A stretch of 61,424 nt of DNA, the filler included. It is 7 parts of 7 records of this genome, joined end to end, with 100 filler letters (N's around TTAATTAATTAA, not from the genome) between each part and the next. Parts side by side here need not be neighbours in the genome. Positions count along the whole stretch, not along the records: positions 34,304 to 41,561 come from SRR7504441_732; 6 more parts are not named here. One strand, given 5' to 3'. The notes under the pieces were generated by a model. It did not search any database. It was not told the origin of the DNA and saw only the letters and a list, made by a program, of their open reading frames with translations. A program made the translations under genes and the position numbers. Of this stretch, positions 3,807 to 61,374 are shown piece by piece (positions within the stretch are counted from its first letter, which is position 1; every line of letters starts with the position of its first letter).

Positions 3807-3906
3807 NNNNNNNNNNNNNNNNNNNNNNNNNNNNNNNNNNNNNNNNNNNNTTAATTAATTAANNNNNNNNNNNNNNNNNNNNNNNNNNNNNNNNNNNNNN
3901 NNNNNN
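3807..3906. other. Artificial contig-joining linker
   Basis: N-run + TTAATTAATTAA (stop in all frames) + N-run. Confidence 0.98.
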
Positions 3907-6422: not shown

Positions 6423-9400
6423 CTAGTGCTCCTCCTCGCTCTCTGCTTTAGCTTCGCTCAGTGCCACCTGCAGTCCTCTCGCGCCGTCATCCAGCAGATG
6501 ATACGGATTGGCATCATTATCAGTCGGTTCATCGACTCCGCGCAGCTGTATCTCACCTTGAAACCAATTGGAGTCCCTCTTCTGAATACCTGGTGAGCAA
6601 TTCTCGTTGCTAAGACCAACGAACGCGAGGCACGCCCGCCACTTGTTGGCCAGCCATTCAAAGCCCCTCTCCTCTCGGGCCACGACAACAAACAGCACAA
6701 CAAGCGCCAGGAAGGCAAGAGCATTGATCAGGATAATAGACATGCTCGCAGCCTCCTTCCAACTTTCTGTAGCATTGGTGCTAGACATCAATACAGCAAT
6801 CCAGACCGTCGTTATCAAAGCAAGTACAGAAATCATCTCCGCCTCGTCACTTCTCAGGTCCATGTAGGGCTGTAGGCGAGCTTGGACTATTGCAAATGTA
6901 ATGAATAAAAACAGTACCACCATGGCCTGAAGCACTACCCCCCATTGCTTCGTCAAAACAATAATTGTGACCGTTGCAACCTTGCGCACCATGATCGCAA
7001 GATTCCAGTAGTACCTCTCCGGCCGACAGTTTGCACCATGCCGACAGCTGCCATGATGACTGCGATCGATGCTGTTCGGCCAGCATACATCCTTTGGTCA
7101 TCCTCGCTCTGAAGGATTGCCAGATAGCAAAGCACCACTAGAACACTGACAACAACAATGATAGCAATGATGACGATTGGGATCTCTTCGCTAGTCGAAA
7201 GACATTTGTAGCATTCAAAGTCAAAAGTGGACCCATAGCCGCTTTCGCACAATGCACACAGAGGTCCGCAGTATGGAAATACACACATCTCATCAGGTGC
7301 CCGAGCGGTGCACGCCTCTGCAAAAATGCATTTCTGAAATATGTAGGGCAAAACCTCATACCAACCGTCTTGTGGAATTACTGTTGAATTCCCATAGCAC
7401 GTTGATCCCTCTGGGCAATCGGTACAGAGACCCATGCCACCAAGTGCAGGATCCGGAGCATAAAAGCAGTTGGGCTCGCACTTGTATATATAGGTCGAGT
7501 CACTCGCTAACCAGCCTTCCTTGTTGACTGAGAGGCGCACTGTGGCTGGCCCAGCATAGGATCGGTGTACGTCTTCATCACGTCTTGAAGTGAGGTGTGA
7601 CTCTGGCGGGGTGCAGCTCGCAATGCTATATCCTTGTTCGTGGCTCCACACATCCAAGCGAAGATTGGTACAGTTGGCCGTATATGATCCAGGTCCAACA
7701 AACTGCATGACCATTGTACTCGCATCAAACCAATCAGGATCATTCAAGCCGATATCAAGGTTGCCGTACTTGCCCGTGGATAGCATCATCCATTCATAAA
7801 GTTGCAACGAGCCATAGGCCACTACAGAATTATCTGTAGAACTTCCGCCCAGGACAGAGCCTGAAGAAGGACGGAGTCCACCTATTGACATACCGACGGC
7901 GTCGTACCAAAAGATCCTTCGATAGTTCCGCCCTTGAGGAGACGCAGATGTCCCAACTGTCAGCCTGCTCCATGGAGCTTGAGGTTGTGGCATTGCATCT
8001 GACACCCTACAAAGAATTTCCCATGCGCTTATTTCTTTAGTGTGCAGTCGCTCACCATCCAGCATACAAAAAGCTGCTGGTGCTTTGCTTGCAATGTCAA
8101 CCTTGACATACGACTCATGCCGTGTTGAAGCGAACGCATTTGCAGATATTTTGGTGATATGGGCGGCAGCAGGGTCATTCGAGGTGGCTGTGACACCAAA
8201 CACGCTAGATATACGGCTACATGACAGCCATTTGATTCCAGTCAAAGTAGCGTTTACTGCATCTGATTGGACTTCGACAGTCCAGTCAAGGACAGCAATC
8301 CCACTGACGTTGGTCATGGAAGTCACCACAGGATCGTGTGATGAACGCCACTTCTCACTGGTGTCAGATTCTAGGCATTGCCTGAGCTGCTTCGCCTCCT
8401 GTTGTCTCTGAGTCTCGTCCATTGCGACGAAATGTGCATACGCCATGTTGGCATACTTTACAGAGAAAGTTATGATGACTGTTGCTTCTAGCCCGCCACT
8501 GCGAAAAGGCACACTGTTGCTGCTAGTATTTCCAGCACGATTGATTGACCATACAGTGACGTTATAGTTGCTGTCTGGCGAGAGACCGGATATTGTGTAC
8601 TTGTAGAGATAGCCTGTGGAACCTCGCTTACTTTGCTCGCGGCATGCCCTCAGAATCTCGTTGCTATACTTCAAATTCGCGTCAACCTCGGGATGAGTGT
8701 TCCCGCGAATGACAATTCTGTAAGAGAGATTTAAGTTTGTAAGATGGTCTGCTTCGTCATCCCGTGGCTTTTCTGCGGTCCAACTCACAGTGACACTATT
8801 TGAAGCAATGCCAGATACACTCAGAGAGGGTGTATCAGGATACTTTGGCATTGTCCAGAAGGTAGCATTCACCGTGGGGCTCCAACCGGCGTCATTTGCT
8901 GCTCTGCAGGTTGCCATGTAATATGTGTCAGGCTCGAGGTCTTGTAGACTCAAGACCATGTATTTGCTCGATACACCTCCAGGGCGCACACCAGAACAAT
9001 GTTTTAAATGTACCTTGACACACTCATAAGAACAAGTAAAGTTAGTGATTGTCACATTGCCCTTGTCAACCAGGGTGCCATTCACTCGCACAGTGAAACC
9101 ATCAGAGGGCGGCAGTGCCGTGCAGGCGAGGTGCTTTATCATCGGCAGTGTGGTCACATGGACTGGTGGTGTTAGCTGTCCGTCGCTCTCGTTACGGAGT
9201 CGAACTAAATAGTTTGTGTTTGAGGTAAGGGGATCGAGTCTAGCAGAGTTGGCTGGTCCAATGCCACTGAGCATATTGAACCATTGACCTGACTCAGGTG
9301 AGAGGACCATCACATCCACTACAGTCGGTTCGCCAGTCCATTCGACCTCAGCCCACGTGGTGCCAGGATTGGTGTGCAATGGAAGAATCTGAAATCCTGG

Positions 9401-9648: not shown

Positions 9649-9748
9649 NNNNNNNNNNNNNNNNNNNNNNNNNNNNNNNNNNNNNNNNNNNNTTAATTAA
9701 TTAANNNNNNNNNNNNNNNNNNNNNNNNNNNNNNNNNNNNNNNNNNNN
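9649..9748. other. Artificial contig-joining linker
   Basis: N-run + TTAATTAATTAA + N-run. Confidence 0.98.
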
Positions 9749-10932: not shown

Positions 10933-13900
10933 ATGAAGCGGAAGCAGGCGGCGCTGAGCACCGCACCGGTGGCCGGCATGTCCGACCGGCGGCTGCGTCG
11001 GGCCCTGGGCCAGTCCGAGTGGGTGCCCATAACAGTAGCGGTCAGCGGGGCCCGGGCCGGCGACCTGCTGGCCGGGATCCCCACCGCCAGCTCCGGCGAC
11101 GTGGCCTCGGTGCTGCTCCGTGTGCACGACGGAGTGGTGCACGCCCCTCCAGGGTATGCCGCCCGCCTCGAGCAGGAGCTCGGCAGGGAGCACATGGTCG
11201 GCGCGGTGGCCCGGCATCTCGGGCTGTCGCACGCGCAGGCCGCCCTTCGGTATGACGACATGCCCCGGCGGGCCGATGGCACCGGCTCCCGGCCACTCGG
11301 GTCGGGATGCCAACACTCGGTGCACGAGGGCTGCAGCTGCCCGCCCGAGGCCCGACTGGTGGTAGTCTCGCAGGGTGTGTGGCAGGGATTCGCGGAGCAG
11401 CACGGGCATGGGGCCGAGCTGCAGGAAATGGTGAGCGCGCAGCGGCCGGTGTGTTGGAGGGAGATCCTGCAGCTGATGCACACCCCGGGCCAGCTCGAGG
11501 GCAAGACCCTCATCCTTCGCCCAGCGCTGTTTGAGTTGGTGGCTGGCCCAGTGGAGATGGATCCTGAGGACCCGAAGCTGGCCGGCGAGACAGTGCTGGA
11601 TGCCACTGTGCTGGGTGGTGGGTCGGGAGCAAGGGTCGTTAGGTTGGACGAGCACTATGTTCGACTGCCAGCGTCCGGGCCCGATTTCTGTAAAGAGCAC
11701 GTGTGCAGTGCGGTGCAGCAGGCAGTGAACGGGGCATCGGCAGGCGCGGTCCAGGGCTGTGTCGCGGCACTCTCTGGTCTGAGCGGTGGGGCACTCAAGA
11801 GTCTGCTGCAGAAGGCTGTCAGGCTGCACGCGCGGCAGGTCGCGCTGCAGCAGTCGTCGGTTCCAGCCAGCCTGGTGGCCGCCGTAGCTGTAGCGCTGCT
11901 GTTTGCGGACAGAGGCAGCTTCAGCCCGGAGCTGCAGCTGTTCACTCGGGGAGGGACCGCTGCGTTCAAGCGGCTAGCGGTGATCATGATTGAGGATTCC
12001 TGGAGTAGCAGCCCAGGCACTGCACACAAGGTCCGGTGTGCAGCCAGGCACTGACTGACTGCCGAGTACAGGTGCTTGCGCTGGTTGCACTCGCCCTTGC
12101 AATGCAGCGCATGGCCGAATACAAGCCGGCCCGATCCGTGATTGTGGCGACTATTCAGTTGGCGGCAGAGGCTGCTGATTCTCCGTCATGTGTTGCCTGG
12201 AGGCTAGGTGACCGGTGCGACAGCCGCTATGCACTCGATCCCGCAGGACAAGAGTCGCTACGCCGGGCGGCGGCCTTGCTGCGACTGGTCCGATCTTTCA
12301 AGTGCGACTATGCGATGTTTGACGCGGCCGTGGCCGCTGGAGAATCTGGTTCGCTACCTCTCACCCAAGCTGGCTACAATCGGCCCGAGTGCATGCCGGT
12401 GTTTCACGCCGTTGACCAGCACGCTTTCCGCGGGATTGGCCATGCACTTCGAGGTCACGGCGGGTCGTTTCCGGAGCGATTCAAAACCATCTGGCGGTGC
12501 ACCGGCTTAAATCCCCGAAGGGAGTCTGTCAGTGGGTTTGAAGCCCGCCAGGAGGTCATTGCTGTGAGATTTGCACAGCAGTGCTGCTTTCGTTTCGCAC
12601 AGCGCCAGCAGCGGCGAGCGCTGACGAGTTGTGGTGTTGAGGCTATCAGTGTGCGGCTGGACTCGGGCGTACTGGCAGCTGGAGTGGGACCGATCAGCGC
12701 CAAGGTCGGCCCAGACAGATTCTTTGAAGGCTGACATGAGAGTCAGGTGAGGTCTTGCGGGCGTGTACGAGACGTGATCGTGCTTCTTGGTGTCGTAGTG
12801 CCTGAGGACGAGATGGTCATGCTGAGGCCGACAAGGGCGACACGAGACTTATTTGGCGAGCTGAGCATAGACGAACGAGCAGAGGCGATACGAGCTGCCA
12901 GAAGCAGCGCACACCCGGTTCAGTCCCCACTTCTTGGCGTTGGGAAGCACACAGCGGAGTTTGTCGACGGTCGCTGGCGCTTAGACGGCCGGTATCCCAC
13001 TGCGGTATATTCATCTTTGACCATGCTTGCCACAGGGCGTGGGCCGATGTCGTGGACAAAGGAAGATTGCTAGAAGTACCACTTGTGCGACCACCGCAAT
13101 GGGCAACCGCCTGCTTGAATGGCAGCTCAGGCGTCAAATGCGCGATCGCGGCAATGAACGAGCTGTGTGAGTCGTCAGTCAGTATTTCACAGCTGAAAGA
13201 GACACGCGCGGGCAAGGTAGTGGCTCGGGCGAAGCATAGCTTTCACAAGGAGCTGGCCAGCACAGCCTTGAACTTGGAGCAATGCTGGAGGCAGCGAGTA
13301 TCGGATGAATATGACGAGCATGGCGATGTCTGTGGCGACACAGACATTGAGTTGCAGCTGCGGCAGCTCGTTATTCTCTTAAAGCAAGTGACGGCTGAAG
13401 TTGAGCAGGATGTAGACTCGACCGCACTAGAGCAAGTAATCAACAACGATGATGCAATCGCTGAGGCACTCTCCATCGCGGCGGATGGACTGGTGCATGA
13501 GGCTCCGAAGCTCATACGAGCTCTTGTTTCGGCGGCTGACCCTGCAGTAGCATTAAGGGCAGTCTCGTTACTGCGGCAGGAATGGAGTAAGATAGCGATG
13601 CCAGTGCCCGGACTAGATGGAGGGCTGGGCGCCGATCAACTAGCTGCATACAATGGCGACTGGGACGTTTGGCGATTGCTTGTGCTTGTCTCAAGGCTTG
13701 CACCCGGAGCACTAGCTCCAGGCATGCCGCCCAACTTCACTGTAGTCAATGCATGCCTCCTGCGGGAAGTTGAGCATTGGGCAATACAAGGGGCGCGAGG
13801 TGCGGCTGCAAAAAGTGCTGTCGCACAATCGAATCAGTGGAAGGGCAACCCGGGCTGGAGGCACCTCTCAGGAGCGGGAAGCGAGGCTCTCATGGAGCAT

Positions 13901-15100
13901 CAGCAGGTGGCGGTGGCACGGATGCACGAGCGAGACAAACAGTCAGATATGGGACACTTCTTGATCATGGATACCGGACTTGGCAAAACGCTGACTTCGC
14001 TGGTGTATGCCTACCGCTGGCTATGCGAGCACCCCCACACGAAACGCATTCTGTGGGTGACACCAGCAGGCACGACAGAGAATCTAGTCAACCAGCTGCG
14101 GCAGACCTGGCAAGTGCCCGTGTGGCTTGTCCCACGGGTCTCAAAAGCTGCGAAGCCCAAACTGGGAGATTCACACGAGTTGATCCTCAAAGACCAGCAA
14201 GTTAATGTGATTCACGCCGACCACCTGCGTACGTCAATCGATAAGGGCCTTGCCTCAGCCGCTGCCAGGTCCTTCATCGTGTTCGACGAAGTAGACGAGC
14301 TCTACTCCCCGACACTGAGAACCTCCGCAGCTCGGCGGCTGGCTCAGCTTTGTCCAAAGTTTGTAGCCCAAACTGCGACTCCAATGAGAAAGAACGAATC
14401 GCAGCTCCGGACGTGGCTGGCTGACACCTGTTCATTTCCTGTAGACGCGTCCAATTTGCTTGTGGCCGCCAGCTCAATGGTCTCCATACAGCTCTCCCTC
14501 GGGATTAAGGCGCACGAAGAGCTGGTCCAGGTTCCAATGGTCGACGCCGTGAGATTCCAATGTCGGCAGCTGGCAGCTGAGAGATCTTGGTTGAGAATGT
14601 CGCAAGTGGTCCAGCAGAACACCGAATGCGCTCTCGTCGATGAAGCGATCCGCCGTGCCAATGCCGATCGTGCCCACCATCCAGATGGCGGCGTGTTACT
14701 CGTGGCTGATAATAAGGCGCATGCAGAACGGTTGATTGCGATGTGTGGCCGCCGTCTAAAAACAGGTGGATTTGACGCCCTCGAGGCTGAAGATACCAAC
14801 GAATATGCTATCATAGTCGTGACAAAGCAGTTAGACCGTGGATACAACTCGGCCACTCGGCTAGGCGTTATGGTTACTGGTGCTTATCCAGGCAATGGCG
14901 CGTCGCGACATCAGATCCGTGGTCGATTGCGGAGGATTGGTCAAAAGCGCAGTGATGTTTTCTTTGTCACGGTTGTGATGCGCAACTCAATTCTACAGCT
15001 TTTACACGAACGACATAGTGCTGTCGACAGCATGAACATAAGCTTGGAGCAACTCGGGATGACCTTTTCGGCTGATGTGCTGTCTCGGCTAGAGCAATAA
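10933..15100 (+). CDS. Large SF2 (SNF2/DExD-like) helicase with N-terminal RarA/MgsA-C-like segment and TFIIS-N-like insert
   Basis: Three short GT-AG introns (~12030, ~12705, ~12992) join four ORFs. Motifs MDTGLGKT, FIVFDEVD, QTATP, QIRGRLRRIGQ. N-terminal KSLLQKAVR..KRLAVIMIED. Confidence 0.75.
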
Positions 15101-20023: not shown

Positions 20024-20123
20024 NNNNNNNNNNNNNNNNNNNNNNNNNNNNNNNNNNNNNNNNNNNNTTAATTAATTAANNNNNNNNNNNNNNNNNNNNN
20101 NNNNNNNNNNNNNNNNNNNNNNN
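20024..20123. other. Artificial contig-joining linker
   Basis: N-run + TTAATTAATTAA + N-run. Confidence 0.98.
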
Positions 20124-34203: not shown

Positions 34204-34303
34204 NNNNNNNNNNNNNNNNNNNNNNNNNNNNNNNNNNNNNNNNNNNNTTAATTAATTAANNNNNNNNNNNNNNNNNNNNNNNNNNNNNNNNNNNNNNNNN
34301 NNN
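34204..34303. other. Artificial contig-joining linker
   Basis: N-run + TTAATTAATTAA + N-run. Confidence 0.98.
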
Positions 34304-35846: not shown

Positions 35847-38800
35847 ATGACACAAGCCAGCACAGCAGCCGCGGGCGGTGGCCGTCCCAGGCGGGGGTCG
35901 GCGCCGCGCAGCCAGTTCGTCGCACCGTGGGCCGCCCCAGCAGCCCCGGAGCTGCCTGCGGCCGGGGGAGTCTCGGACGAGCTGGAGCTGCTGGACGCGC
36001 GGTTCAAGGCGCAGGTGGCCGCACTGCGATCCAAGATGGAGGCGGCGATCGAGCTGGAGCCGGAGCAGCCTCGGGCCGACCAGCCGGTCGAACCTTGGTC
36101 GCTCGAGTCCACAGTAGACTTCGAGGCCACAGAGCGAAGGGTGTGGTCCGAGCTCCAGCCCCCGTCCGCCAGCCAGCCAGCCAGCCGGCCGGCGGCCCGG
36201 GGGGGCGGGCGGCTGGTGCTCCCACCGGTGGAGATCCCGATCGCGGACAACCTGCCGCCGGTGCCGGCACTGGACTCGTCGGACTCGTCGGAGCCGGAGG
36301 AGGGGGGGGACTGCATGGTGCGCGGGGCGATGGGCCAGTCGCGCCGGGATATGGTCCAGTGGGACGAGCTGCTCAGCACACGGCGAGCTGCCCGAGCTGG
36401 GCTGGCTCACGGGGCGTCAGGCGCCAACTGGCCCGTGCGAGCAAGCAGGAGTGCCAGGTGCTCGAGGCTCTGGCGCAGCAGCAGCAGCAGCACCAGGCCG
36501 AGAAGTCGGAGGCTGAGGCCTCGATCGAGGCGCTCCAGCAGCAGCTGGGCGCCAGGTGGGCCAGTGTTCAGGTGGGCTGCCGGCCAGACCGGCGCTGAGC
36601 CGTGCGGCAGCGGATGCCGGGCGCGCTGCAGGTGGGCGACCGGGTGTTGCCGTTGGACGAGTTCACCAGGGCGCTCGATGAGCACGAGCGGCTTGAGCTC
36701 GGGCTGGCGCAGGCGCTGCTGGCTGCGGAGCACCCGGACCTGCACTCTGGGGCCGAGCAGAAGGCGCGGGCCATCCAGGGCCAGCTGGGCCAGATGCGGC
36801 TACGGCGGGCGCATCTCAAGCTGGAGCTGGAGCAGGCGACCGAGCAGGCCAGGACGATAGAGCAGCGCGAGGCCGAGCTCGGCGACGCACTGGTCAAGGC
36901 GCGGGCGAGGCTGGAGGAGCAGGCCACGCTGCTCGATCAGGCCACCGCCAAGATCGCCTCCCGGGCATCGCTCACCCCCCGGATCAGCCATTTAGACAGC
37001 GCTGGACCAGCACTAGGAGCAACTCAAGCGCTTTCAGACAGCGCTGGGCCAGGGCTAGGGACCACTCAGCTGCTGCCAGACAGCGCTGCGGCCCAAATGT
37101 TGCCGGACAGCGCTGGGCCAGGGCTAGGGGCCTCTCAGCTGCTGCCAGGCAGTGTTGAGTCAGCGTCATGGCCGCCCAGCCGGTCGCCGCCCAGCCGGTC
37201 GCCGCCCGGGATCGCCACCCGTACCAGCCCTGAGTCGCCTTTCGACCGGCTCGGGGCGATCCAAGCCAAGAAGGCCGCGCTCCAGCGACTGCCCACTTTC
37301 AGTCCAGTGAGCCCTGCGCCGGCCAGCCCGGAGCCGGCGGCTGGCGGGGCGAGCAGTCCGAGCCTGGAGCCGCTGGGGCTGCCGGATCAGGTGGCGGCCG
37401 GGCTGCGAGGTGCGCCCAGGCCCAGTCGACTGCTGACTGATGGCAGGCTGGGTGGCGGTGCAAGACGACGCAGATGCGATGATCCAAGCGCTAGCCAGTG
37501 GACTCAAAGCCGAGACGACCAGCACAACTGTGCCAGGGCCGGTGAGCTGGCTGACTGGATCCGGACAGGTGAGCCGATCAGGGGAAGAGTCCGTAGCGGC
37601 TGGGTCGAGTGACGGGCATACTGACGACCAGCGAGGCGACCAACAGCGGCAAGATCGGGCGAGAAGCATCGAGAACACAAATTATTCGCTGAGGAAACTG
37701 GCAGAGTTGCAGCACGGTCAGAAGAAGGAGAAATCGCCCATTACCAACAAGTTGTATCTAGATCTTCGGAGCACAGAGCGAGACGATATGCCGGACTGGA
37801 ACCGGAGTTTCTATCCTCCGCCTGATGAGCGGGCCCTCCAGCCGGGTGACGAGGAGTTACTTTTAGAGCTCACGCGATCGCGGCCGCTTCCACAGCTGCC
37901 ATCTGAGGAGCCCGAGATGCCTCTGGCGCAGGCAGACTACGGACTGGATAGGACCGCAATCCTGTTGGCCGAGCGCAGCCAACCCACAAACAGTCCAGGC
38001 GGGCAATCTCATACATCCAAGGATGCAGCTGAGACTATTAATCGGGGTTTCGTCCGCAGGCAGTTTGGGGAATATGCTCGCAAGAGCCTAGTGCATGGCG
38101 GCAGTTTCGATGACGTGGCCAAAGCTAGCGAGCAAATGGATCTCGCAGAGCTTTCAAAGTTAGCACGAGATGTCGGACTAATGCCCTATTTGTTCGCAGA
38201 TGTTTCACAACTCAAGAGAGCTTTCCTAGAAATCAATACCTCTGACGCCGCCGATGAAAACAGGAGCTCTTTCAGCCTGGCAGAATATGAACAGTTTGCT
38301 CAGGCTTGTGTCGAGCAGTGCCAAACGACTAGCCAACCTCACCGGCAAATTCCAAAGAAGCTCATCGTGTGGCTTAATAACGTAACCAAAGGCGGGGCTG
38401 TTCAGGCTGGAGCATTTGCTCCTGCCCCAGAACCCGCCTGCGCCGGTTCGCCGGATGGCCTCTCGCCCTTTGCGGTTCGTCACGTTCGGCAGCAGCCAAG
38501 CAGTAAGCTAGCTAGTGTACGGAATCTCAACGAATCGAGCACCCGCACGGAGGAGGAGGAGGAGGTTCCAATGGTAAGTCCGACCCAATTTGAGAGAAGT
38601 GCACTGGAGGCACGCGAGCTGGCCGAGACCCTGCGACAGATGGGCAATGAGGCCAAAGCCGAGGAGGCTGAGCAATTGAGTCAGATGCTGAGTGACGCTG
38701 CGCTTCGAATGAAAACGAGCGAGTCCGAGCCACTAGACGGCGGGGCAGCCAGCGAGGATGTCAGTCGGAGTGGCATGCGGACTTTGCTAGACGAGCTTAA

Positions 38801-38963
38801 GCACTCGATTAGCGAGCTGTCTTCGGTAGCCAGGGAGCCGGTTCCCCATATCGGCCCCGTGGCAAACTCAAGTGAGGTATGTGCCTGCTCACCCGCATTC
38901 CTGCATCGTGACTGTGTGCTTGAAGGTTGCCAATGCAAGCCGAGGCCAAAGCGCCTCAAATAA
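35847..38963 (+). CDS. Large low-complexity and coiled-coil protein with EF-hand/p25-alpha-like segment
   Basis: Spliced ORFs; SEQMDLAELSKLARDVGL..LKRAFLEIN..SFSLAEYEQF; 3' end uncertain. Confidence 0.5.
36994..37150 (+). repeat. Coding minisatellite, 42-nt unit (GACAGCGCTGGGCCAGGGCTAGG...), about 3.5 copies
   Basis: DSAGPALGATQALS / DSAGPGLGTTQLLP / DSAAAQMLP / DSAGPGLGASQLLP. Confidence 0.8.
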
Positions 38964-39253
38964 GCTGCGCCTACGATCTGGACGAGCAGAGTGGCGTAAA
39001 ATCATGCGATCCGGAACAAACAGTTGATTGTGGCAAAAACTTGAACTGAAGTAGCCTAAAATAAGCCTAAAAGGACATAGATCTCGTCATGTACCAACGC
39101 CAAAAATAATACAAGTACGATATAACAGGATGTAGTGATGCTCGCCATAATTATGCACATGAGCCACACGTTATCACTACGTTATCACACGCCTTCACAC
39201 GCCAAAGACATGGCCAAAGAGTGACGCCTAACGCGCAAATAAGAAAGATTGCC

Positions 39254-39279
39254 GACTGACTGACTGACTGACTGACTGA
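39254..39279. repeat. (GACT)n microsatellite
   Basis: gactgactgactgactgactgactga. Confidence 0.9.
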
Positions 39280-39410
39280 ATACTCATACGGTGTTGACGT
39301 TTAATTTAGTACGTTTCAATGCAATAGCTGCTATCATGGTCAAGACTTAGGAGACCCAAGGTACCGTAGTATTCGAATAGATCACCAATTTTCGTTGATT
39401 GTGACAAAAC

Positions 39411-41561
39411 CTATCGCTCCTCTTGGCTAGGCGCGTTCGGCGCTGGTGCCAGCTCAGTGAAAAACAAGCACTCCAGTTGATGCTCTTCAGCTGGTGTGGC
39501 AATCACACATGCAGTGTCACTAGCACTGGTGCGCGTTTGCTGATTAGGCGAAAGCCATCCAGGAAAGCCTCTCTGGATTTTCAGGACAATCTCCTCGTAT
39601 CCTACGAGGTTTTGCTCCTCGGCTTGCAACGCAAGAGCAAGCAGGCAATTCTCTTCCAGCTTACCCTGGCGAGCTACTTCTGTCCAGTGCTGCTCAAACG
39701 CCTCAAGCTGGCGCCTGTTCTGCTCGCTGTCGCGGTCCGCCAGAATGTCCCCGTTTGAAAGCTTCCAGTACTCCCCCAGACTCTCTTGTGAATCCATCAA
39801 TCTCTTTAGATGGCTCAGATGCTGGAACACAGCGGTGCTGTTGCCCTTGTCGGGATGAAGTGCTGGTGACAGCTTCCTCCAGACAGTTTTCTGCTCAGTA
39901 GAACGACCTTTGGCGGCTTCATAAATCCTAAAGAGGCGAATCCCGCGACGAAGCTCAAAGCTATCAGGCTGACTACAGGTGGCCGATGACACAACTATGG
40001 GACAGCAAGCCTCCTGCAGGCCTGAATCCACCGCGATGGCAGATGGTTGGCATTCGTATTTGAGAAGCTTGGGCTGATCTAAGATAAGTGGCAACAGTCT
40101 TTTGTCACTAGCACGGAATCGACGGATGCAGACAAAGCTCCTTTCAAATATATCAGAGAGTTCGTCTTTGTTATTGCCACGAAAAACTCCTTCCACTGAA
40201 CGCCCAACATAGATTGTGTGGCTAGGTCCTAAAAGGTCTTCGGAAATGCTAACCTTCCCCTGATCTTCATCCTCAAAGACTTCGTTCTGGAAGAAATATG
40301 TGCCGTTCATTGGGAACACCCCATCATACGCTGTCCAGGCCGAGACCAGGATACGCCCCTCGACAATCCCGTTCGGAAGCGGCCTGCTCTTGAGAAAGAG
40401 CCATGGTATCTTATCACCAGCTTTGCGCGGCTTAATCAGCCGATCAGGCACCTCAAAGGCCTCCATGAGTCTTTGGGACTTTGCTGGACCCTTTTCGACT
40501 GTTCTGCTGCCCGTTTCGCCGTGCTTTTGACCATAGTCGCACTGCATCAGCAGAGGGCAATCGGCGCACTGGGGCGACTCACCACACAACACAGCCCCGT
40601 GGGTAATGACTTGGACATGTGATTTGTATAGAAGCTTCCAGATTCTCTCCTTCTCACGAGCTTTCTCACTTTCGGTTGCATTCTCGCTTACTTTGGGGAT
40701 GCTTAGACGCACTTGCTCCTGCGCCTGCTTGGCAAACTTTTTTATATTGACTGGAATGTCTTCAATATCGTCCAACTTGACTGGCTTTTTGCTCTTAGAT
40801 TTACCAGCTGCTATTTCACGAGTGTATTCACACACATGATACGTATTGTGCCTGGAGCAAAACATCTTTGAAGCCCCGGACACTGCAACTCGAGCCGTGG
40901 GACGTGCAGCAACATAGGCCAGCGAGTTGCAATCGCCGCTCTTGGGGGTGGTGGGAATCATGGACCGTGCATCTATGAACCGCTCTTCACGCAGGTTATG
41001 ATGCTCGGCTACAGGCACCAGGCTTGTTTGGTTCACTGGGGTTGTCATGAGAGGCATTAGCTCAGTTGGTGATGCCTCGTGCGAAGCTGGAGAGCTGACC
41101 TCAACGGCAGCAAGGACTCTTGCTTCGGCTCCAAGCTCAAGTACCCGGCCCTCTGACTTTGCAGCTGGCTGACCAATACCACCTTGAGCCTCGCACCTGG
41201 AATCTTGTGGAGCCTTTACCCCAACCTCGGGACTGGGCCTAGGAGAGGCTGGATCTGCGACTCCGGGCCCTGAGAGTGTAATGCTCTCAGCTGCCGCAGG
41301 CTCAAAGATCAGGGCCTTTTGCGCTGCACAAAGCCCCACTTGGTTGTTTTGATGGGCAGTTGACTGGGCTGCTTGTCTGGCGTTGCAATTTCCCTCATAA
41401 TTCGGGGAATGGTCGATTAGCCCCGACGTTTGATCTTTCTGCAGTGTATCTGTTCGTCTTAGAGCAATGTGTGATGCCTCTGGAGTCGCTGGAGGATGCA
41501 CAGCGGAATTGTCTACCTTGCCAGGTGTCGCGATAGGCACCGCAGCTCTCTCGTGGTCGAC
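39411..41561 (-). CDS. DEMETER/ROS1-like DNA glycosylase, C-terminal part (4Fe-4S motif + RRM-fold domain + DnaJ-like domain); 5' truncated
   Basis: LYKSHVQVITHGAVLCGESPQCADCPLLMQC; GRILVSAWTAYDGVFPMNGTYFFQNEVFED..IYVGRSVEGVFRG..FERSFVCIRRF; WRKLSPALHPDKG. Confidence 0.85.
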   Translation of the reverse strand, partial: VDHERAAVPIATPGKVDNSAVHPPATPEASHIALRRTDTLQKDQTSGLIDHSPNYEGNCNARQAAQSTAHQNNQVGLCAAQKALIFEPAAAESITLSGPGVADPASPRPSPEVGVKAPQDSRCEAQGGIGQPAAKSEGRVLELGAEARVLAAVEVSSPASHEASPTELMPLMTTPVNQTSLVPVAEHHNLREERFIDARSMIPTTPKSGDCNSLAYVAARPTARVAVSGASKMFCSRHNTYHVCEYTREIAAGKSKSKKPVKLDDIEDIPVNIKKFAKQAQEQVRLSIPKVSENATESEKAREKERIWKLLYKSHVQVITHGAVLCGESPQCADCPLLMQCDYGQKHGETGSRTVEKGPAKSQRLMEAFEVPDRLIKPRKAGDKIPWLFLKSRPLPNGIVEGRILVSAWTAYDGVFPMNGTYFFQNEVFEDEDQGKVSISEDLLGPSHTIYVGRSVEGVFRGNNKDELSDIFERSFVCIRRFRASDKRLLPLILDQPKLLKYECQPSAIAVDSGLQEACCPIVVSSATCSQPDSFELRRGIRLFRIYEAAKGRSTEQKTVWRKLSPALHPDKGNSTAVFQHLSHLKRLMDSQESLGEYWKLSNGDILADRDSEQNRRQLEAFEQHWTEVARQGKLEENCLLALALQAEEQNLVGYEEIVLKIQRGFPGWLSPNQQTRTSASDTACVIATPAEEHQLECLFFTELAPAPNAPSQEER

Positions 41562-41661
41562 NNNNNNNNNNNNNNNNNNNNNNNNNNNNNNNNNNNNNNN
41601 NNNNNTTAATTAATTAANNNNNNNNNNNNNNNNNNNNNNNNNNNNNNNNNNNNNNNNNNNN
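41562..41661. other. Artificial contig-joining linker
   Basis: N-run + TTAATTAATTAA + N-run. Confidence 0.98.
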
Positions 41662-44988: not shown

Positions 44989-45823
44989 TTATATCGATAT
45001 ATTAGTAGTTGCCGGCTCGAAATGGAATTCTTCGATGTACGAGGCAAAGCTCGAATTGACCGCCATCTGGGAGTAGGCAATGCTGCGGGCGTGGAGCCGG
45101 ACCGTCAGGGGCTGCTGCGGGATCCGGCTCGCGTCCGTGCCTCACGGTCTTGTTGTTCACCTTGATCGTCGCGGACGTCGGAGTCCATTCTACTTCGTAT
45201 AAGTTGAAGTCGGTCGCGACATTGACGTCCTCGCCCAGAGCCGTAAATTCCTTATTGTGGCTGTCTCCGTGCCGGTAGCAGCTGCTCTGCATGTAGCGCG
45301 TCCAATTCGTGCCCGGCGGCTGCCCCGACGCCGAGGCGCCGGCTCCGTGCATCGTGATGGTGATGGCGCCGGACGAAGGCGACTCGAGCCCAATGAAGCC
45401 TTTGGCGGACCGGACCAGGTCCGCGGCGCCGGGAAAGTAGCGGGCTTTGACGCGGATGGTGCCGAAATTGAGCGGCTGCTTGAACTGAATGAATCCGCTG
45501 TGGCCGCCCGTGGCCGGCGTGCAGGACGACTCGCTCGCCGGCCGCCGGCTCGTCGTGATCGTCAGGCCGGTCTTGAGCTCGGAGTTAATCGACCCGGGTC
45601 GGACCGCCGCGGTTTCCATGGCCGTGCATTCGTCCGGGTCCTTGGATGCGTGGCAATCGAAGCAGGTCGCGCTGTACTCCCAAAAGGCCGGTTCTATGGT
45701 GCTGAAGTTGGTGGAGTAGGATGAGGAGGAGGAGGGGGTGGTGGTGGTGGTGGTGGTGGCAGCGGTTTGGGAGGTTCGGGCGAGGAGGAACCAGAAGGCG
45801 CCGAGTACTGCGTGTGCCTGCAT
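44989..45823 (-). CDS. Secreted GH16-fold protein lacking the catalytic ExDxE motif; frame break near 45140
   Basis: Signal peptide, Thr/Ser linker, HSGFIQFKQPLNFGTIRVKARY, DFNLYEVEWTPTSATIKVNNKTVR. The continuation RIPQQPLTVRLH..YIEEFHFEP is in another frame. Confidence 0.6.
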
Positions 45824-45887
45824 GCCCCGACCGGTTCCGGCGGTGCCGACCTTGTTTGCCGTTAGTGAGGCGGCAGGGCTGCGACGT

Positions 45888-46643
45888 ATGCGACGAACAG
45901 CCCGGCTGCGCTTGGCCTCCAGCGTGGGGTTCCAGGAGGCGCCCTCGGCCGCGCACGCCCAGGCGGCTGTGCGGGCGAGCACTGAGCCGGTGCCGGTGCC
46001 GGGACTTGATACGCTCCGGCTCCGCCTGATCACGCCGCGGTGCGAGCTCTGGACGGCCACCGAGCGCCAGCTGCCGTTCCCGCTCCCGTACTGGGGGTTC
46101 GCCTGGCCGGGCGGGTACGGACTGGCCAAGTACATCCAGGCCCGGCCCGAGCTGGTGCGTGGGAAGCGGGTGCTAGATTTCGGGTCCGGGTCCGGGCTAG
46201 TAGCGATAGCCGCCGGTATGGCCGGGGCCCGGAGCGTGCTGGCAACTGATGTCGACGCGTACGCGGTGCAGGCGGTCCTGCTGAACGCGGAGTTGAATGG
46301 GCTCGGCGGGCGGGTGAGCGCCAGCGAGCGGAATGTGCTTCAAGGGGCGGAGCCTGGACCGGTGGCTGAGGTGGTGCTCTGCGGTGACTGCTGCTATGAG
46401 ATGCCTCTGGCCAAAGAGGTGCTCGACTGGCTGGGTGAGCGGGCGGCTGGCGGGGCTCGGGTGTTGCTGGGCGACCCAGGCCGGTGGGGGCTGAAGGGGC
46501 AGACGGGTGGGCTGGAGAAGGCTGGCGAGTATCAGCTGCCTCCTGGACTGCGGGATGAGAACTTCGGGCTGGAGGAGAGCACGTACGTGTGGCAGGTGAT
46601 GGCGCAGGGGGGCGGCCACGGGCACGCACATATTAAATTATGA
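45888..46643 (+). CDS. Class I SAM-dependent protein lysine methyltransferase, ETFBKMT/METTL20-like
   Basis: Arg-rich targeting-like N-terminus; LPYWGFAWPGGYGLAKYI; VLDFGSGSGLVAIAA; LCGDCCYE; LLGDPGR. Confidence 0.85.
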   Translation: MRRTARLRLASSVGFQEAPSAAHAQAAVRASTEPVPVPGLDTLRLRLITPRCELWTATERQLPFPLPYWGFAWPGGYGLAKYIQARPELVRGKRVLDFGSGSGLVAIAAGMAGARSVLATDVDAYAVQAVLLNAELNGLGGRVSASERNVLQGAEPGPVAEVVLCGDCCYEMPLAKEVLDWLGERAAGGARVLLGDPGRWGLKGQTGGLEKAGEYQLPPGLRDENFGLEESTYVWQVMAQGGGHGHAHIKL

Positions 46644-57317: not shown

Positions 57318-57417
57318 NNNNNNNNNNNNNNNNNNNNNNNNNNNNNNNNNNNNNNNNNNNNTTAATTAATTAANNNNNNNNNNNNNNNNNNNNNNNNNNN
57401 NNNNNNNNNNNNNNNNN
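57318..57417. other. Artificial contig-joining linker
   Basis: N-run + TTAATTAATTAA + N-run. Confidence 0.98.

Positions 57418-58474: not shown

Positions 58475-61374
<2,900 letters not shown>

Follow-up and report, generated by a model that had tools for sequence, protein, structure and literature searches.

Direct excision of 5-methylcytosine (5mC) has been described for plants and green algae, and homologues have been noted in stramenopiles. We analysed a window of 61,424 nucleotides, filler included, in which seven contigs are joined end to end, and examined a gene at 39411-41561 on the minus strand whose product (P0001) belongs to the DEMETER/ROS1 family. According to the available text of PMC3045615, T606 and D611 of ROS1 are required for base excision, F589 and Y1028 are required for the preference of 5mC over T, and the substitutions T606L and D611V abolish base excision with lyase activity kept. 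Q607, R903, and M905 open the 5mC:G pair (PMC3794587, available text). Fusions with CXXC, PHD, and DnaJ domains are known in chlorophyte and stramenopile DMEs (PMC6717269 and bioRxiv 10.1101/175091, in the portions available). Zhang et al. 2019 (PMC6717269), citing Iyer et al. 2011, described such homologues with CXXC, PHD, Tudor, and DnaJ domains, in which classical CXXC, PHD, and DnaJ are joined to the DME core as in the relatives of P0001. The fusion of DnaJ to algal DMEs is already published; the available text names chlorophytes and stramenopiles but not haptophytes.

We found that P0001 is encoded by part of a genuine gene, that its domain content puts it in the DEMETER family, and that it is a haptophyte-type variant, marked, as judged by sequence comparison, by a relocated insert, a changed base pocket, and a terminal J-like domain. 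Compared to Arabidopsis ROS1/DEMETER (DML; PDB 7yho, 7yhp, 7yhq; PF15628), the P0001 clade lacks the large 6b/6c insert, carries a 100-800 aa expansion after the catalytic Asp and a terminal J-like domain, and has T606, D611, R903, M905, and Y1028 all replaced. The range of the DEMETER family grows by a conserved branch that haptophytes share with an uncultured marine protist. Our literature search found no publication on a DEMETER glycosylase in haptophytes or on DEMETER-based demethylation in Emiliania, though Iyer 2011 and Du 2023 may already mention Emiliania; the supplement text of PMC6717269 (text only, figures outside) contained none of the terms Emiliania, haptophyte, Aureococcus, Chrysochromulina, and DnaJ.

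The gene fragment and its domains

The gene forms one open frame of 716 aa plus a stop codon with zero internal stops, and the frame stays open up to the contig edge, where it meets an N/TTAATTAATTAA/N linker at 41562. Linkers were located at 3807-3906, 9649-9748, 20024-20123, 34204-34303, 41562-41661, and 57318-57417; since the contigs are joined by N44-TTAATTAATTAA-N44, gene neighbourhood across linkers is meaningless. The Pfam search of P0001 gave one match, RRM_DME at residues 402-488 (E 4.4e-16, 59.3 bits, cut-off 34.6), and the top PDB sequence match was Arabidopsis ROS1 (7yho/7yhq, E 4.4e-16), spanning the Fe-S helix and the C-terminal domain. A reading made earlier from the sequence alone (the sequence-only reading) had proposed a DEMETER/ROS1 homologue, and the RRM_DME match, the Fe-S loop, and the ROS1 match bear this out. 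Its individual elements were recovered as well, namely the [4Fe-4S] motif preceded by an LYxLHYxxITFG-type helix, the RRM-fold signature (FPMNGTYFFQNEVF, residues 416-429), and an HPD-containing J-like domain. Two features of the DML family, the DME-specific C-terminal domain and the four-Cys [4Fe-4S] loop, are present in P0001. The features are as follows.

39411-41561, minus strand: open frame of P0001, 716 aa, encoding the C-terminal portion of a DEMETER/ROS1-family protein and cut off at its 5' side by the contig edge (translation, Pfam, PDB sequence match)
41562-41661: assembly linker (44 N, TTAATTAATTAA, 44 N) between two contigs, at which the gene loses its 5' part
40881-41561, minus strand: disorder-like remainder of the large insert that separates the catalytic-Asp helix from the pre-Fe-S helices, residues 1-227, without HhH or Asp motif (composition, SEG, RNA contigs)
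40830-40880, minus strand: conserved CxxHxxYHxC motif, residues 228-244, which may form a small zinc site in the insert's distal end; found in 6 of 10 orthologues spanning the insert, and in P0053
40695-40772, minus strand: DIEDIP motif and helix resuming the glycosylase fold, residues 264-289 (aligned with the plant 'IQKYLWPRL' helix)
40596-40631, minus strand: pre-Fe-S helix LYKSHVQVITHG, residues 311-322 (motif position); H315 corresponds to ROS1 H1027, and V316 stands in place of Y1028
40539-40586, minus strand: [4Fe-4S] cluster loop CX6CX2CX5C, residues 326-341, with all four Cys (motif scan, ROS1 match)
40029-40466, minus strand: DME C-terminal domain, residues 366-511 (Pfam RRM_DME 402-488), predicted fold like ROS1 and BAH
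39783-39956, minus strand: divergent J-like domain, residues 536-593, three helices, HPD in loop 2/3 at 39849-39857 (model, profile)
39570-39764, minus strand: helical tail, residues about 600-664, kept in close relatives (P0063, 46% identity over 591-664)

The upstream stretch of P0001 is coding, not intron. It holds 224 codons without a stop (chance 0.0003) in this frame only, the other two frames having 11 and 9 stops, and an intron reading was thereby ruled out. Described earlier as more than 200 aa of mostly low-complexity sequence that reaches the contig edge without HhH/GPD motifs, the stretch indeed reaches the edge and lacks the motifs, but SEG masks 0 of residues 1-225; it is instead disorder-like, with 60% A/P/S/E/Q/G/K/R. 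Residues 228-289 consist of conserved motifs common to orthologues. Contigs of three RNA libraries matched portions of the gene at 99-100%, and two RNA-library contigs lay inside the upstream stretch (41174-41324 and 41378-41528) with no joints, which fits an expressed exon, short of proof. The metagenome scan gave one relative, L001 (1318 bp), covering the C-terminal part only, and contigs from four sequencing runs over the region were short, with no useful extension of the frame. In a motif scan, HhH, catalytic Asp, and CXXC motifs were absent from all six frames of the contig, tblastn of the window with seven relatives gave matches confined to 39723-41504 and no HhH half, and permuted-CXXC had no Pfam match in P0001. 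No relative was found in the viral contigs scanned.

Relatives and the relocated insert

Relatives were gathered by three protein searches and one exhaustive search (best 150 of 355 matches). The P0001 clade includes Prymnesium parvum AB1Y20_000123 (P0004), Emiliania huxleyi EMIHUDRAFT_451890 (P0171), and marine proteins, and ranks above about 100 green-lineage DMEs among the matches listed. P0171 and P0004, labelled hypothetical or PHD-domain in the databases, are 46-52% identical to P0001 in the C-terminal domain and have the insert site and pocket residues of the rest of the clade. A quick tree was built from the C-terminal domain only, with 45 rows (20 selected ones, and 100 plant-type rows sampled at every fourth), 175 columns, and long branches. 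It placed P0001 within the haptophyte-containing clade (SH-aLRT 93, with one long-branch row inside), and between this clade and the green-lineage DMEs lies a branch with support 96. P0001 and P0006 fell outside the group of named haptophytes (SH-aLRT 89), whereas P0171 and P0004 were placed within it. A plant or green-algal DME contaminant, considered in the sequence-only reading, was rejected for the P0001 gene by this tree, in which the gene groups with haptophyte proteins. The J-like tail is present in P0171 and in the P. parvum transcript P0176; the gene model AB1Y20_000123 stops before this domain while the transcript carries it (compared with P0013 and P0176), and the former is probably a truncated gene model.

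Relatives of P0001 are about 1500-2500 aa long. In the full-length ones, GNAT-like and PHD domains in the N-terminal part are followed by a continuous HhH lobe with the catalytic Lys and Asp, then by an insert of 100-800 aa right after the Asp helix, in which a zf-CXXC finger is usual and the CxxHxxYHxC motif frequent, and finally by the Fe-S region, the C-terminal domain, and the J-like domain. The clade orthologues lack the large insert between helices 6b and 6c: the Gln-to-Lys distance is 96-110 aa in 5/5 distinct clade proteins, whereas the 88 other rows have a median of 459 and include two short ones (106 and 126). We take the post-Asp expansion to correspond to the second, small insertion site (4c/4d) that PMC3045615 gives for DMLs. 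The large insertion inside the catalytic domain that the sequence-only reading had suggested is thus seen in the orthologues and, together with the contig edge, explains the missing HhH and Asp motifs.

The HhH Lys and catalytic Asp would lie beyond the contig edge in P0001, and both are kept in 8/8 orthologues covering the region. From these sequences we infer that the P0001 copy has the catalytic half. A non-catalytic derivative, the other possibility raised earlier, is unlikely as far as loss of Lys and Asp is concerned. It could still be that this copy alone is a truncated derivative or pseudogene that lost its HhH lobe, given a contig without HhH or Asp motif and a closest sub-clade (fragments P0006, P0011, P0019, and P0053) of which none spans the N-terminal lobe. 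We consider this very improbable, since the frame is open to the contig edge, the Asp-to-Fe-S span reaches 881 aa in orthologues, far above the 325 residues present in P0001, and the four Fe-S Cys and the helices packing on the HhH lobe are intact. Further combinations of accessory domains with a DME-like core were observed in P0164 (two CXXC and PHD), P0027 (FHA and two CXXC), and P0136 from Chlorokybus (SAND).

The base pocket and the proposed activity

The explanation that we favour, at about an even chance, is that the gene whose 3' part lies in the window encodes a large chromatin-targeted bifunctional HhH-GPD glycosylase/AP lyase active in methyl-CpG turnover. The roles of the CXXC, PHD, GNAT, BAH, and J domains are taken from established knowledge. 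The PHD and CXXC domains and the BAH-fold C-terminal domain would direct the enzyme to certain nucleosome and CpG contexts, and the insert would loop out so that the catalytic core closes as in ROS1. The Gln and a Tyr wedge may then flip the pyrimidine of a CpG site into the re-tooled pocket, where the Lys/Asp pair would excise the base, nick the strand, and start base-excision repair. The job is most likely methyl-CpG turnover, with 5mC, the T:G left by its deamination, or both as substrate and with contacts unlike those of ROS1. Hsp70 is most likely recruited by the terminal J-like domain, for assembly or release of the enzyme.

Several observations weigh against this explanation. Pocket residues were counted by motif anchoring, with cluster duplicates dropped and rows without the motif uncounted. 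T606 was replaced by A, D611 by N, R903 by G, and M905 by Y, each in 9/9 clade orthologues; Y1028 was replaced by V in P0001 (V316) and in 16/16 clade rows; D598 to G and H612 to S were found in 9/9 clade rows. No assayed member of the P0001 clade was found in the literature search. The N-terminal half of P0001 was not recovered by metagenome scan, run contigs, motif scan, or tblastn, and the RNA contigs span only portions of the gene and are possibly DNA-derived. The structure model is a prediction, aided by likeness to the solved ROS1. Of the two domains that the sequence-only reading had left to profile searches, RRM_DME was matched, but Pfam DnaJ matched 0 of 21 tail sequences.

Green-lineage rows, by comparison, retained T606 (96/98), D611 (98/98), R903 (86/86), M905 (81/86), and Y1028 (97/104). 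Plant-type active demethylation, suggested by the sequence-only reading, finds no support in the form given, as five ROS1 residues that mutagenesis found important for 5mC excision (PMC3045615, PMC3794587) are replaced across the clade. Q607 was kept in 9/9 clade rows, and F589 is probably kept, its equivalent being Phe in the 9/9 clade rows aligned there across a 2-residue indel. Y1028V is the sole pocket change visible in P0001, its register set structurally (model residue 91 = H315 = ROS1 1027). A pocket His decides 5mC over T:G according to the available text of a review (PMC12228296); this His may correspond to H612 (lost in the clade) or to H1027 (kept).

A serious alternative to an active enzyme, though a less likely one, is a protein that has lost base excision but still works as a lyase. 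The protein would keep Lys and Asp, bind or nick abasic sites without base excision, and act as an AP lyase or a scaffold carrying the GNAT, PHD, CXXC, BAH-fold, and J modules to DNA. T606 to A and D611 to N (9/9) resemble the glycosylase-minus, AP-lyase-plus mutants of ROS1, and the clade has many accessory chromatin domains. However, those ROS1 mutants carried Leu and Val where the clade carries Ala and Asn, and EndoIII D44L retains glycosylase activity, so the position is not universally needed (PMC3045615, available text). Moreover, the catalytic lobe is 57-67% identical across haptophyte-type relatives and the replacements are invariant, which suggests a selected new pocket rather than decay and points to a re-tooled active site. 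We regard as less likely again a role outside demethylation, in which a chromatin-targeted glycosylase would repair damaged bases (oxidised pyrimidines, as for EndoIII, or some other lesion), since the DME-specific C-terminal domain and the F589-equivalent Phe (9/9 aligned rows) are kept and CXXC points to CpG methylation status (PMC6717269, available text). With Emiliania and Prymnesium in culture, the invariantly different pocket of the clade offers a natural experiment on the origin of 5mC specificity.

The J-like tail and the C-terminal domain

The HPD domain of P0001 is J-like. Helices were predicted at 535-549, 554-568, and 576-590, and HPD (569-571) lies in the loop between the last two, both long, as in J domains (pLDDT 85-88 for this helix-loop-helix part). 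In an unselected census HPD was present in 21/26 relatives reaching the region, the five misses ending or diverging at or before HPD; among rows picked for carrying HPD it was invariant (20/20). Apart from ROS1, the tail profile matched only five J domains in PDB (T antigens, Tim14), weakly. These short-loop J domains (polyomavirus T antigen, Tim14/Pam18) share the HPDKGG loop between two helices with a third helix ahead, but the E values of only 0.06-0.6 are below Pfam DnaJ detection. The ESM Atlas gave no match for the tail. In P0134 from the green alga Neomeris, and likewise in P0033, the DnaJ domain is of the canonical Pfam type and sits between the Fe-S region and the C-terminal domain, whereas in the P0001 clade the divergent J-like domain follows the C-terminal domain. 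Since these DnaJ domains are differently placed and barely match the clade tail profile (E 0.9 and 0.02; 6.9 bits versus a best shuffled score of 3.0 bits), the terminal J would be either an independent gain or much diverged; when profiles were compared with those of P0033 and P0134, the alignments fell on other domains and missed the J region. P0033 (Logan, 1075 aa), with a clade-type wedge (GPYF), clade-type pre-Fe-S residues, and a post-Asp insert of only 75 aa, is possibly an intermediate form.

The predicted C-terminal domain has eight strands, in keeping with the beta-rich BAH fold, and its best fold-search matches were BAH domains (DNMT1 BAH2, MET1, PBRM1, AIPP3, ORC1), with ROS1 also matched. 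Sequence identity to these BAH domains is only 6-16%; one relative of P0001 had a weak Pfam BAH match (E 0.18). The top fold-search rows of the 443-residue model contained no RRM and no J domain, which excludes neither. Reviews leave DME/ROS1 targeting open between RNA and histone guidance (PMC9266487, PMC10573277), and a BAH-like C-terminal domain would give targeting a concrete structural basis amenable to testing. Our literature search found no publication tying a ROS1 glycosylase to a BAH-like fold, though Iyer 2011 and Du 2023 may already mention the likeness. Taken jointly, and only tentatively, the DEMETER branch of haptophytes and allies may have split its catalytic domain independently at the second site, with an insert carrying a CpG-reading CXXC finger, and rebuilt its pocket to excise not plant-style 5mC:G but T:G, 5hmU, or some other modified pyrimidine, giving a GNAT/PHD/BAH chromatin-coupled, Hsp70-gated enzyme, with the 'RRM' of all DEMETER/ROS1 enzymes being a BAH-type histone reader. 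Such a reader, if real, would explain the H3 binding of ROS1 and argue against RNA guidance through this domain.

Elsewhere in the window, an AT-richer gap with a short (GACT)n repeat (39246-39287) separates the P0001 gene from a converging open reading frame (ORF) at 37440-38963 (plus strand). A 648-aa ORF at 13154-15100 (plus strand) has a Med26/TFIIS helical-bundle match followed by an SF2 helicase (DEAD/ResIII/SNF2-like) domain. The C-terminal part of MCM6 lies at 58475-59695 (minus strand), a PrmA/lysine-methyltransferase-like ORF at 45822-46643 (plus strand), and an FN3-repeat protein at 6953-9310 (minus strand).
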